Positions 2,849-11,223 of a stretch of DNA of 16,260 nt are shown here, one piece after another. The stretch's first letter is position 1; each line of letters opens with the position of its first letter. Source of the DNA: a virus; UHGV virus genome UHGV-0143875. The stretch is one strand, 5' to 3'. The notes below the pieces were generated by a model. That model did no database searches, was not told the origin of the DNA, and saw only the letters and a list, made by a program, of their open reading frames with translations. Made by a program: the position numbers and the translations under genes.

Positions 2849-3022
2849 CTATTTGAGTAACGATTCGTCGCTGTCTCGCCATACGTCCTCCTTTTCCTGA
2901 GGTAGTGGTAACACCCCTGTTGGTGTTCTTTCACACCGGAGACACCATCGATTCCAGTAAGGTTGCCCGGGTCGAAAGCGATCGTCTTCCTTTCGCTCTC
3001 CACATCGATAACAGTGCTTCAT
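2849..3022 (-). CDS. 57-aa CxxC...CxxC zinc-ribbon protein (NinD/ORF57-like by size and position)
   Basis: Start moved to Met7 of ORF 2849..3040 ([34 protein letters not shown]...), giving an ATGA start/stop overlap with the upstream methyltransferase gene. Identity with lambda NinD is not verified. Confidence 0.5.
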
Positions 3023-3609
3023 GCGATCACCATTTTGCATGGTTTAATCGCCATGCCGGGAGCCAGTTCAAAATCGGAGTCGCACTGATTGCCCCACATA
3101 TCCCACCCGGTCACTTTGTCGCGGCTAAATAACTCACAGCGCGGCACGTCGCCAAGCAACTTAGCTAACATGTCTCTTACGATCGGTGGTTTTGCACTGT
3201 GCTCCATTCTCGGTGCGGTAAAGTGCTGGCATATTGAAGCGTCCATTCTCTCAGGCAACCGCCCTCGAACAGCAAACAAGCAATCCTCGCTATTTGCCCG
3301 GGTCATATGCCCCATTCCGATCGCACTGTTGCCTTTGTGCTTATTGGTTTTGTGCCAAGTAAAGCCTTTCATAGTCATCAACCTGAATCCCCACGCCTCA
3401 ATTACCTTTAGCGCTTCGGCTGGCTGTGTCGGCACCCACCACATCGCTAACAAGCAAGATTCTGGATCCGCTAAATCCCATACTGGCAGTCGGCAAATGT
3501 CCTGAACATTCATAACATCGTATTTATGTCCAGCACCGCGATTGCCATCGTTGGCTTTGTCGCGATATTGCCAAGGCGGATCTGCGTAAATAAGTCGGTA
3601 TTTGTTCAT
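3019..3609 (-). CDS. DNA N6-adenine methyltransferase, MT-A70/DPPW family (orphan, no restriction partner seen)
   Basis: 196 aa starting [15 protein letters not shown]...; the DPPW motif near the N-terminus is the catalytic signature of phage Dam-like adenine methyltransferases. Occupies the slot between ninB and ninD (the lambda ninC position). ATGA overlap with ninB. Confidence 0.8.
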
Positions 3610-6449: not shown

Positions 6450-7804
<1,355 letters not shown>

Positions 7805-8446: not shown

Positions 8447-8983
8447 ATGTCATCAATCCGCTTAACTACGAGAATGAAAGAGAAAATCGCTCGTAACGCT
8501 TTAATTAAATCTGGGGTTTTCACTGAGCTTGAAGAAGTAACAAAGTTAAAGAACAAGCTTGCACTTGACGCCAGAGTTGTTGCGTTTGGCGGTAAAAAGA
8601 AAACTGAGGAAGTGGATCAGTTATCATCCAAGTTAATGGCTATAAGCGAAGAACTTGAAAAGCTGGGATGTTCATTTTACTCATGCGATGCCCGTTCAAC
8701 TTCAATTTATCTGACTGTATCTGGCAGAAGGGTTGGCTGGTATTCATATGGGAAAGACGGCAACGGCGAAGATATATTGCTCCCTACTCCGACCAAAGAT
8801 AAATGCATGTTTAGCGCAGAACACGAAATAACAAAAAGGTTTGATGAAATCTGCGCATTGCAACAAAAACTTGAAGCCAAGAAAAAGGATATCGAATCAA
8901 ATGTATGGGCTGCTTTGAACTCAGTCACAACAGTTAAGCGACTTATTGAAGTTTGGCCTGAAAGCAAAGAGTTGCTACCATAA
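8447..8983 (+). CDS. Hypothetical protein, 178 aa, in the N-proximal accessory slot (lambda ral/sieB position)
   Basis: ATG at 8447 preceded by GAGAGGA RBS; MSSIRLTTRMKEKIARNALIKSGVFTELEEVTKLKNKLALDARVVAFGGKKKTEEVDQ...; charged, Lys-rich, no obvious transmembrane segment; lower GC than flanks by eye; no resemblance to Ral or SieB as recalled. Confidence 0.6.
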   Translation: MSSIRLTTRMKEKIARNALIKSGVFTELEEVTKLKNKLALDARVVAFGGKKKTEEVDQLSSKLMAISEELEKLGCSFYSCDARSTSIYLTVSGRRVGWYSYGKDGNGEDILLPTPTKDKCMFSAEHEITKRFDEICALQQKLEAKKKDIESNVWAALNSVTTVKRLIEVWPESKELLP

Positions 8984-9204: not shown

Positions 9205-9230
9205 GCCCTCCAGTGTGAGGGCCTTTTTAT
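9205..9230 (+). terminator. Intrinsic terminator upstream of cIII (tL-type)
   Basis: GCCCTC-CAGTGT-GAGGGC hairpin followed by CTTTTTAT. Confidence 0.6.
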
Positions 9231-9294
9231 ATGCATACCAATAACGCTTCACTCGAGGCGTTTTCGTTATGCAATCAAACAGAAGGAGCATCCT

Positions 9295-9465
9295 ATGCAA
9301 CAGTTCGCTATTGCAGGGGCGGCATCGGTTCGCCCTTTCAACCCGATTTTATCGGTACAGCATTCACGAAAAAATATTTTAACCGGAGCAGACTTTAAAC
9401 AACCAAGAATGAAAAGCTTGCTCGAAAAGCTTTGGGATATTTTGAAACAACAAGGCCGCCCATGA
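9295..9465 (+). CDS. cIII: cIII-like protein (inhibitor of FtsH-mediated cII degradation)
   Basis: 56 aa MQQFAIAGAASVRPFNPILSVQHSRKNILTGADFKQPRMKSLLEKLWDILKQQGRP after RBS AAGGAG; same size, position and N-terminal MQ-x-AIAG motif as lambda cIII, otherwise diverged. Confidence 0.65.
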   Translation: MQQFAIAGAASVRPFNPILSVQHSRKNILTGADFKQPRMKSLLEKLWDILKQQGRP

Positions 9466-9569
9466 GTTTTACAGATAACTGGTCAGACGAAGAATTCATT
9501 CGTCAGATAAACAAAATGCTCAATCAGCACAAAGAACAGGAGAAAGATGATGATTCTGACTCTGAATGA
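9462..9569 (+). CDS. Possible small acidic protein (35 aa), ATGA-coupled to cIII
   Basis: MSFTDNWSDEEFIRQINKMLNQHKEQEKDDDSDSE; start overlaps the cIII stop; too short for the ORF track; coding status uncertain. Confidence 0.3.
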   Translation: MSFTDNWSDEEFIRQINKMLNQHKEQEKDDDSDSE

Positions 9570-9858
9570 TAAGCGTGAAATATCGCAAATTATCGCAACT
9601 TTTACTGATGAAGATTACGAACGAATCAACAGTGAAGTTGATCGCCTCTGCAAACGTTGCGACCCAATAAGCGAAATGCTTCGCTCATATAAACCAGATG
9701 AACACACTAAAGATGCTATCGACTGGCTGGAAGATGATGACTGTGACTATCAGGAAAAAGCCGCTGAATGGTTCTGGGATGCAATAACAGAAAGAGTTAA
9801 GGCTGAATATGCCTTCGCAATATTCAAACGCAGACAAATTTATGGAGAAGCAGCATGA
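9547..9858 (+). CDS. Hypothetical acidic protein, 103 aa, immediately upstream of and coupled to the RecT gene
   Basis: RBS AGGAG 5 nt before ATG; MMILTLNDKREISQIIATFTDEDYERINSEVDRLCKRCDPISEMLRSYKPDEH...; Asp/Glu-rich; stop overlaps the RecT start (ATGA). In the position lambda uses for kil/gam. Confidence 0.6.
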   Translation: MMILTLNDKREISQIIATFTDEDYERINSEVDRLCKRCDPISEMLRSYKPDEHTKDAIDWLEDDDCDYQEKAAEWFWDAITERVKAEYAFAIFKRRQIYGEAA

Positions 9859-10757
9859 GCAATATCGTTGAATTCGTTAAACATCAGGAGCAGTTATTCT
9901 GCGGGGCATTGACTGAACAGACGGTGACATGGGCTAAGGAAAGCCAGTTTGCAATTCAGTATTTCCAGAAAAATGATTACCTGGCTAAAACGGCACTGGC
10001 AAATCCAACCAGCGCACAGAACGCCATCATCAATGTTGCGGCGATCGGCATCACCTTAAACCCGGCTAGCAAACTGGCTTATCTAGTTCCGCGCGACGGC
10101 ATGGTTTGCCTTGATATAAGTTACATGGGATTACTTCACCTTGCACAGTCGACAGGATCAATTAAGTGGGGACAATGCAAACTGGTGTACTCAAACGACA
10201 CCTATGAATCGAATGGCCTTGATTCAGCACCCACTCACAAATACAACGCATTTGGTGAGCGAGGCTCTATTGTTGGTGGTTATTGCACGGTTAAAACAGC
10301 AGATGGTGACTACCTGACTGAAGAAATGAGTCTGACAGAAATTAAAGCCGTGGAAGCAACGAGCAAGGCAAAGAATGGACCGTGGATGACATTCTGGGAA
10401 GAGATGGCGCGTAAAACCATAGTTAAACGCGCCAGCAAATACTGGCCTAAAGCCCAGCGACTGGATAATGCCATTCACCTGCTTAACGAAGATGAAAGTA
10501 TGCATCAGGAACCAGTTATGCCGCATAAATCAGAGGAAGATATCCGCGAAGATGAACGGAAACGCCAGCAGGAAATAACGGATAAAGCACAACTTCTTTG
10601 TGATGAAATGGCTCAGGCTGAAAACATGGATGATTTGAAGAGATATTTTGCAGAAGCATATCGCCTGACATCTGGAATGAAATTGCAGCAGAACGTACAA
10701 GCCATTTACATAGAATGCAAAGCGAAACTGGAGGTTGCCAGTGAGCAAACTGTATGA
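9855..10757 (+). CDS. recT: RecT-family single-strand annealing recombinase
   Basis: 300 aa; contains the ...NGPWMTFWEEMARKTIVKRASKYWP... block characteristic of the RecT family (compare Rac RecT GPWVTHWEEMAKKT by recall); occupies the lambda bet position. Confidence 0.8.
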   Translation: MSNIVEFVKHQEQLFCGALTEQTVTWAKESQFAIQYFQKNDYLAKTALANPTSAQNAIINVAAIGITLNPASKLAYLVPRDGMVCLDISYMGLLHLAQSTGSIKWGQCKLVYSNDTYESNGLDSAPTHKYNAFGERGSIVGGYCTVKTADGDYLTEEMSLTEIKAVEATSKAKNGPWMTFWEEMARKTIVKRASKYWPKAQRLDNAIHLLNEDESMHQEPVMPHKSEEDIREDERKRQQEITDKAQLLCDEMAQAENMDDLKRYFAEAYRLTSGMKLQQNVQAIYIECKAKLEVASEQTV

Positions 10758-11223
10758 AATAGCCAATGAATACGCAAAGTTGATGGATTCGGATTTAGAG
10801 CCAGAGATGATTGCTGACACAATAGAAGGCATGGAAGGAGAATTTACCGATAAAATAGAGCAACTTCTTGCCATTATTAAAAATGAATCTGGTTATGCTG
10901 AACGCCTCAAGGACGAGGCAAAGTCACTGAATGAACGAGCAGCAGTAATTCAAAATAAGATTGATAGCATTATGGCATATATAGCGTCATCGCTTGAAAT
11001 GGTTGGCAAGAAAAAGATTCGAGCAGGTATTCACCAGGTAACAATCCGCAAACCGTCAGAAACTGTAGAAATCATCGACTCAAGCGCCCTTCCTCAAGAA
11101 TACGTTGAGTTTGAAACGACAATTAAAGCCGACAAGTTGGCAATAAAACACCAACTAAAAGCAGGAATAAATATCCCCGGCGCTCAACTCAAAGTTGGGA
11201 AACCTTCACTTCTTATCAAATAA
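10741..11223 (+). CDS. Hypothetical protein (~160 aa) downstream partner of RecT, probable GTG start
   Basis: GGAGG RBS 7 nt upstream of GTG at 10741; overlaps the RecT 3' end; predicted helical and charged: SKLYEIANEYAKLMDSDLEPEMIADTIEGMEGEFTDKIEQLLAIIKNESGYAERLKDEAKSLNERAAV.... Function unknown. Confidence 0.55.
   Translation: MSKLYEIANEYAKLMDSDLEPEMIADTIEGMEGEFTDKIEQLLAIIKNESGYAERLKDEAKSLNERAAVIQNKIDSIMAYIASSLEMVGKKKIRAGIHQVTIRKPSETVEIIDSSALPQEYVEFETTIKADKLAIKHQLKAGINIPGAQLKVGKPSLLIK

Follow-up and report, generated by a model that had tools for sequence, protein, structure and literature searches.

An acidic protein family encoded next to the first recombination gene of lambdoid phages is a candidate third sequence type of Gam-like host-nuclease inhibitor

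In the most comprehensive survey of recombination modules in lambdoid phages, which covered 325 of these phages (Genome Res 2025), Gam, GamL, Abc2 and MuGam were recognised as the anti-RecBCD types, and Gam and GamL, which have similar predicted folds and 'very different' sequences, are both accepted inhibitors (PMC12315714). HK140 was scored with MuGam as its only anti-RecBCD protein, and the module type of SEN22 was scored without an annealing protein and without an anti-RecBCD protein, with 0 Chi sites (PMC12315714), Chi avoidance being a signature of inhibitor-encoding phages (PMC3784561). Here, we analysed a stretch of 16,260 nucleotides (nt) from the virus genome UHGV-0143875 (hereafter the window), in which two small acidic open reading frames (ORFs), orf35 and orf103, lie between cIII and a recT gene. 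Our results suggest, with a probability of roughly 60%, that orf103 represents a third sequence type among the host-nuclease inhibitors resembling lambda Gam, one that has so far gone unannotated. The most apt description is that of a new sequence type within an already known kind of inhibitor, which makes the surprise moderate. SEN22 itself carries a homologue of orf103, a gene that the survey left uncounted, and no paper recognising the family was found within the searchable literature. An initial annotation of the window had guessed at an anti-RecBCD or DNA-mimic function, and this is now the best-supported reading of orf103, because gene order, predicted fold (with the lambda Gam structure GamS as top match) and replacement by a true gam in phage Dewey all point to it; binding to RecBCD itself would follow by analogy.

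At the family level, orf103 matches phrog_3486 over its full length (residues 2–103 on profile positions 1–102 of 102; E 5.5e-58), a group of ~100-amino-acid (aa) all-helical proteins of Enterobacterales phages that carries the label 'unknown function'. Neither orf103 nor its family gave a meaningful match in Pfam or NCBIfam, a sequence search of the PDB with orf103 returned no relative, a word-indexed search returned close Enterobacteriaceae relatives only, and a single-protein search of genome contigs returned no related loci. Among 1.8 billion representative proteins scanned with HMMER, 54 matched (30 at E<=1e-10), with members mostly 97–110 aa long and identities going down to 23%. The isolated phages with a family member infect Escherichia, Salmonella, Cronobacter, Erwinia and Pantoea, and their members are all annotated as 'hypothetical protein'; Edno5, which was also scored inhibitor-free, was absent from the tblastn matches with two family members.

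The position of the family gene was the same throughout. All nine distant members (9/9) abut or overlap the first gene of a recombination module, that is, RecT with YqaJ (four loci), RecT alone on a short contig (one), a DUF3799/RecE-like nuclease with or without RecT (two), Y8K6 with RecT and Gp157 (one), and an unassigned protein of 281 aa together with Gp157 (one), and the same first-gene position was found in five annotated phages (SEN22, Kapi1, mEpX1, ENT47670 and PA-1). In SEN22, the homologue of orf103 is 93% identical; there (locus L003, 3347–5045), RecT and Gp157 are replaced behind the orf35-orf103 cassette by a 282-aa exonuclease VIII homologue, to which the cassette is coupled, and a 189-aa protein. 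About half of the distant loci have cIII and/or a Kil-like ORF on the upstream side, some contigs being too short to tell, and one or both usually precede the family gene where sequence on that side is available; the resulting order of cIII, kil, family gene and recombinase is that of cIII-kil-gam-bet in lambda. Indeed, phage Dewey has the order cIII-kil-(80 aa)-lambda-type Gam-RecT-Gp157, and its RecT and Gp157 genes have ~85% nucleotide identity to those of the window over the matched parts. Judged from these gene orders, one and the same slot is filled by either gam or orf103, since the true gam of Dewey precedes a closely related RecT in the same place. Gam, GamL, Abc2 and Abc1 were found by tblastn in none of the 93 family loci. 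The lambda-like synteny proposed initially for the 103-aa gene is borne out by these data, the next gene always being a recombination gene and a true gam occupying the same slot in Dewey. In the window, the genes on the plus strand follow one another as Nmad5-domain gene, two hairpins, cIII, orf35, orf103, recT, Sipho_Gp157 and D5-like regulator, with the following features from cIII onwards:

9295–9465, plus strand: cIII, 56 aa (phrog_550 'CIII', E 1e-22)
9462–9569, plus strand: orf35, an acidic peptide of 35 aa (phrog_17766, E 2e-15; phrog_2123, E 2e-9)
9538–9542, plus strand: Shine-Dalgarno sequence AGGAG for orf103, within orf35 (read from the sequence)
9547–9858 (likelier start 9550, 102 aa), plus strand: orf103, acidic, all-helical member of phrog_3486
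9733–9756, plus strand: DDDCDYQE motif, codons 63–70 of orf103 (hhalign, BLASTP, column shuffle, invariant columns)
9843–9858, plus strand: coupling junction of orf103 and recT, with GGAG in the last codons (…YGEAA) and then ATGA
9855–10757, plus strand: RecT-family single-strand annealing protein, 300 aa (PF03837, E 1.3e-32; phrog_148, E 4e-90)
10735–11223, plus strand: Sipho_Gp157 gene (PF05565, E 2.7e-36; phrog_253, E 9e-53)

The predicted structure of orf103 points in the same direction. Using a 37-sequence alignment, AlphaFold2 gave a five-helix model with a predicted local distance difference test score (pLDDT) of 91.7 and a predicted template modelling score of 0.78, all five models reaching at least 90.5; an earlier run with 5 close sequences (pLDDT 76, the other four models 45–51) was left out of the fold searches. 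In a Foldseek search against the PDB, GamS (2uv1, 2uuz and 5mbv) stood at the top of the list and accounted for 6 of the 48 listed chains, with a probability of 0.47 and a TM-score of 0.54 for the best match (TM range over GamS 0.31–0.54). The predicted orf103 model also has the helix arrangement of GamS, in which two short helices lie between a long N-terminal helix and a C-terminal one. That the top fold match of the model is the same protein that lambda encodes in the syntenic slot is the strongest single argument for Gam likeness. Foldseek against BFVD returned nothing significant, the top match (E 0.03) being a 107-aa unnamed protein that is probably a family member.

At the sequence level, when the family was compared with 18 or 98 Gam sequences by hhalign, orf103 residues 53–80 aligned with GamS residues 57–84 over 27–28 colinear columns (E 8e-4 to 3e-3), so that DDDCDYQE of orf103 (DDDxDYQE in the family) and DDDVEFQE of Gam stand at matching positions. 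The aligned motif is the best-conserved one in each family, is invariant in Gam, and sits before the last helix, at the helix 4/5 junction of orf103. The observed score of 20.2 was not reached by any of 300 Gam alignments with shuffled columns (mean 10.9, standard deviation 2.1, maximum 20.1), and in the global hhalign alignment D8/K9/E11 are colinear with D8/R9/E11 and P40 with P40. The initial statement that neither small protein resembles Gam is thus correct for ordinary sequence searches, whereas a short colinear motif and the predicted fold of orf103 do resemble Gam.

With regard to the genes themselves, the two ORFs of 35 and 103 aa lie between cIII and the recombinase exactly where they had been placed, and both are rich in Asp and Glu (D+E), as had been noticed, with 31% D+E, a net charge of -7 and an isoelectric point (pI) of 4.3 for orf35, and 24% D+E, a net charge of -10 and a pI of 4.5 for orf103. 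The strong ribosome-binding site and the ATGA junction into recT were also recovered, as AGGAG (9538–9542) and as the overlap of the orf103 stop with the recT start (gcATGAgc, 9855–9858). In the same way, the TGA of cIII overlaps the ATG of orf35 (ccATGAgt, 9462–9465), and orf35 and orf103 overlap by 20–23 nt in different frames. Because AGGAG lies 7 nt ahead of the second ATG of orf103 (9550) and only 4 nt ahead of the first (9547), the second is the likelier start, giving 102 aa, the length of most homologues.

To these observations we added 80 IMG/VR loci with close relatives, so that scans covered 81 loci, with 57 distinct haplotypes for the ratio of nonsynonymous to synonymous polymorphism (pN/pS) of orf103. 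This ratio was 0.09 in the frame of orf103 vs 2.0 and 3.0 in the other two frames, and 23 of its 31 variable sites fell at third codon positions; orf103 is unquestionably a real coding gene. For orf35, which keeps its 35 codons uninterrupted in 79 of the 81 loci, pN/pS was 0.44 vs 0.62 and 5.6 out of frame, with 12 of 20 variable sites at third positions, a pattern that suggests a translated but weakly constrained peptide. The two genes always occur together in this clade, preceded in 39 loci by cIII and in 37 by a separate Kil, and orf35 is always joined to this preceding gene through an ATGA overlap.

Translational coupling towards the recombination genes also recurs across the family. In the window and 12 other family loci (13 in total), a GGAG/GAGG Shine-Dalgarno sequence of the next gene lies inside the last codons of the family gene, and the downstream ATG overlaps or abuts its stop as ATGA, TGATG or TAATG. 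The conserved C-terminal E-[AV]-A of the family encodes this Shine-Dalgarno sequence, and we therefore rejected this tail as evidence of protein homology. Lambda gam likewise embeds GAGG in its …SEV codons before bet, which shows that the orf103 family and lambda gam share a coupling design, and not thereby protein homology. Note that a 31-nt direct repeat (74% identical) links 9544–9574, at the start of orf103 and the end of orf35, with 9731–9761, in the DDDCDYQE region; a 69-aa E. coli database protein (P0025) joins the orf35 head to the orf103 C-terminus, precisely the fusion that an in-frame deletion by recombination between the repeat copies should give.

The orf35 protein (MSFTDNWSDEEFIRQINKMLNQHKEQEKDDDSDSE) combines a widely shared head with a local tail. 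Its codons 1–15 (45 nt, 9462–9506), which translate to MSFTDNWSDEEFIRQ, are nucleotide-identical to those of HK97 gp42.1 (L015, 2501–2545) and Sf6 gp30 (L016, 2501–2545), the head being found also at 2001–2045 of L018. Kapi1 and SEN22 carry the same 45 nt, and the downstream modules differ across carriers (Erf vs RecT). HK75 gp33 has this 15-codon head as well, its product matching orf35 over the first 16 residues with 15 identities, and the resemblance to a 59-aa ORF of SPN9CC-type P22-like phages goes up to codon 28 (phrog_17766, residues 1–32), while the match to phrog_2123 (52 positions) covers residues 1–20 of orf35 (E 1.7e-9) and not its full length. After the shared head the tails are unrelated, with total lengths of 35, 52, 56, 59 and 83 aa between phages, and the tail of orf35, in which the ribosome-binding site of orf103 lies, occurs with the orf103 cassette only. 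These comparisons give orf35 the appearance of a conserved head set at a mosaic junction of lambdoid recombination modules. As a side observation, HK97 gp42.1 (83 aa; L015, 2501–2752) is the Sf6 gp30 head fused to the Sf6 gp29 body (phrog_2123 and phrog_1723), and in Sf6 (L016, 2501–2750) gp30 and gp29 are separate overlapping ORFs in different frames, a difference that could be a frameshift variant or reflect alternative products.

As for the function of orf35, the initial placement of the 35-aa ORF in the kil slot did not hold: a separate Kil (…LPWYRRK) lies directly upstream of it in Kapi1 and in 37 of the 81 loci, orf35 matches no Kil PHROG, and a Kil identity was rejected. A hidden Markov model of P22 Arf (phrog_2445) matched orf35 weakly (E 0.076), as it did Gp33, gp42.1 and the SPN9CC ORF (E 0.04–0.07) over the same 22–24 residues, and these matches are not independent, all of them running through [FW]SDEEFI; a pairwise BLASTP of orf35 with P22 Arf gave E 0.002 over 12 residues. 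OLD toxicity is triggered by HK75 Gp33 on its own, as it is by RecBCD inhibitors, and Gp33 has been proposed as a new RecBCD inhibitor or manipulator (10.64898/2026.07.10.737580). The orf35 peptide may modulate recombination or RecBCD, or it may serve mainly as a linker for coupling that bears a ribosome-binding site.

Several results weigh against this picture of a Gam-like orf103 preceded by an active orf35. For orf103, PF06064 (Gam) was not matched at E<=0.1, the families listed at E<=10 for 37 family members did not include it, and no member matched PF28165 (GamL) or NCBIfam. The hhalign probability of the local Gam alignment is only 11–25%, the global alignment is not significant (E 0.53), and all E-values of Foldseek against the PDB exceed 1. 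In the model, the N-terminal helix is predicted to be kinked at residues 18–20, and the model is a monomer prediction, whereas Gam acts as a dimer. Moreover, ~80 of the 93 family loci are near-identical, which leaves roughly a dozen independent lineages. For orf35, the in-frame pN/pS is barely better than that of one other frame, and the match to Gp33 covers the first 15–16 residues only. The weak statistics are what a chance likeness among small helical proteins would give, orf103 then being unrelated to Gam and orf35 a non-functional remnant of the mosaic junction kept for its coupling signals; the identity of the first 45 nt of orf35 in distant phages, fitting recent recombination over protein selection, and the variable tails of orf35-type genes would suit this explanation as well. 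We regard it as very unlikely.

The N-terminal helix deserves separate consideration. The helix of Gam inserts into the single-stranded DNA (ssDNA) channel of RecB, and its motif MNAYxxxDRxExxxW, common to Gam and GamL, is absent from orf103, a further point on the negative side; at these positions, orf103 has only D8-K9-x-E11, as judged by eye and from the global alignment, which is not significant. This helix is all that Gam and GamL have in common (hhalign 95.7%; PHROG cross-matches at E ~0.05). We considered phi80 GamL as an intermediate linking orf103 with Gam and discarded it for its lack of similarity to orf103 (hhalign 0.4% with a 107-sequence GamL alignment and 4.3% with a single sequence), which also counts against the likeness. 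An N-terminal helix different from the conserved RecB-channel helix, together with the acidity of orf103 (pI 4.5), would fit a Gam-like helical protein with another target, namely SbcCD, a restriction enzyme or another defence nuclease, which would make orf103 an anti-defence DNA mimic; in addition, the PL recombination region has been described as a hotspot of anti-defence genes (10.64898/2026.07.10.737580). Such a target seems quite improbable to us.

The position of the family gene bears on still another explanation, in which orf103 is an accessory factor of the recombinase module (like P22 Arf or Abc1) acting on the annealing protein, the nuclease or the host single-stranded DNA-binding protein. 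Indeed, the gene always adjoins the first recombination gene and is usually translationally coupled to it, T4 UvsY mediator chains recur in the Foldseek list (E 2.7–7.7), and the module already has Gp157, labelled 'Mu Gam-like end protection' in PHROGs, so that a second end protection might be redundant, which is also an argument against a Gam-like orf103. The redundancy point is answered by Dewey and HK639, which likewise pair Gam-type and MuGam-type proteins, and GamS ranks above all other chains in the same Foldseek list; an accessory role is, on balance, unlikely.

If orf103 is Gam-like, as we favour, the following course may be proposed. N-antiterminated PL transcription would read through tL-like hairpins into cIII-orf35-orf103-recT-gp157, and ribosomes would be handed from gene to gene via the overlaps, orf103 being coupled to recT by the embedded Shine-Dalgarno sequence and ATGA. 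The protein would then most likely act like Gam, presumably as a dimer that mimics DNA and targets RecBCD, and linear DNA ends (rolling-circle replication products and RecT substrates) would be shielded from exonuclease V (ExoV) so that RecT can act. A bolder version, which we consider rather doubtful, is that orf35-orf103 is a cassette moving as a unit behind cIII/kil and before RecT or a RecE-like nuclease, in which a Gam fold with a different N-terminal 'probe' helix engages RecBCD in a new way, or engages another nuclease or defence sensor, and in which the Gp33/Arf-like peptide is a second, independent RecBCD manipulator.

The window as a whole comes from an E. coli phage or prophage of the lambdoid group, of which it represents the immunity and early region, with NinG, a phosphoesterase, an MT-A70 methyltransferase, P, O and cII on the minus strand, and a cI-type repressor, the leftward operon and, at the end, a lambda-type integrase on the plus strand. 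Over this region, identity is 97% with phages E212 and EC.P3, as well as with many E. coli prophages, and ~91% with mEpX1, HK140 and Gally. Upstream of cIII, a pattern scan found:

9205–9222 and 9243–9262, plus strand: two terminator-like hairpins

A rho-independent terminator is annotated at the equivalent place in mEpX1, and the hairpins (9205–9262) look like tL-type terminators traversed by N-antiterminated PL transcription.

Other neighbouring genes merit a brief mention. The start of Sipho_Gp157 is ambiguous, being either the TTG at 10735 (a 23-nt overlap with recT) or an ATG further downstream, which is the annotated start in mEpX1, and its match to Mu Gam proper in Pfam is weak (E 0.018); from a RefSeq label, we infer that the MuGam scored in HK140 is its Gp157 homologue. 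Between N and cIII in the PL operon (8447–8983) lies a protein with nucleotide-modification-associated domain 5 (Nmad5; E 2e-58), the Kapi1 homologue of which is Kapi1_018. The cI-type repressor gene is overlapped at its end by a 158-aa ORF (7328–7804) without Pfam match, which close to its N-terminus is hydrophobic over a stretch resembling a signal peptide, and which may be a prophage-expressed moron at the position of lambda rexAB. The gene of the MT-A70-family DNA methyltransferase (3019–3609, minus strand) lies in the nin region of the rightward operon. The window contains 0 Chi sites vs 0.4 expected, an expectation too low to be informative. Finally, M(S/K)EFKGTPGPWF… proteins recur near the family, between kil and gam in Dewey (L014, 1868–2110) and, as a Pfam Phage_P22_Y8K6 protein, between the orf103 homologue and RecT of an uncultured phage (L010, 3806–4129), and look like another shuffling accessory gene of recombination modules.

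Were orf103 a third type with the Gam fold, part of the gap in the classification of recombination modules (none for the SEN22 type, MuGam only for the HK140 type) would close, the lack of Chi sites in SEN22 would be explained, a family that is now called 'hypothetical' could be given a function in Pfam, NCBIfam and PHROGs, and a natural Gam-like partner for RecT recombineering would be available. The protein is also a candidate trigger of RecBCD-guarding systems, namely OLD and the retrons Ec48 and Se72, and orf35 ties the module to HK75 Gp33, the newly reported OLD trigger. If both genes did act together as a two-part cassette, they would represent an unrecognised counter-defence class in lambdoid recombination modules, with possible triggers of OLD- or retron-type guards.

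Compared with described systems, orf35 is similar to HK75 Gp33, HK97 gp42.1 and Sf6 gp30 (phrog_2123) in being ATGA-coupled to kil or cIII at the head of a recombination module, but phrog_2123 and phrog_17766 proteins are unrelated to it after residue 16 and residue 28, respectively, and are 52–83 aa long vs 35 aa; moreover, orf35 is followed by orf103, whereas the genes of the Gp33/gp42.1/gp30 type are followed by erf. P22 Arf (phrog_2445) is likewise a small acidic peptide, encoded close to where the module starts (in P22, directly before erf), with [FW]SDEEFI near its N-terminus, but only ~12 residues align with orf35, and Arf works with Erf and not with RecT (PMC12315714). Sipho_Gp157 (PF05565) shares with orf103 a putative role in end protection within the same module and is a different protein with a different fold; Mu Gam binds DNA ends and not RecBCD (PMC12315714). 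Phi80 GamL (PF28165, phrog_1050) is, like orf103, a small helical protein encoded directly upstream of a RecT-type annealing protein, SAP-4, a type also present in HK140, a close relative of the window phage; in contrast to orf103, it shares the N-terminal helix with Gam, and it has no detectable relation to orf103. According to the phi80 record, gamL is toxic without its partner Mog, encoded by the adjacent gene, whereas no such partner was seen beside orf103. Finally, lambda Gam (GamS; PF06064, phrog_259; PDB 2uuz, 2uv1 and 5mbv) differs from orf103 in that no similarity is found at the HMMER level, in that orf103 lacks MNAYxxxDRxExxxW and has an N-terminal helix predicted to be kinked and a longer last helix, and in the partners, which for orf103 are RecT or a RecE-like nuclease and not Bet/Exo. 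Nevertheless, the two proteins are alike in size (98 vs 102–103 aa), in being acidic and all-helical with the same helix order, in carrying DDDx[DE][FY]QE before the last helix, and in their genes occupying the slot after cIII-kil, directly before the gene of the annealing protein, with the Shine-Dalgarno sequence of that next gene set in their last codons.

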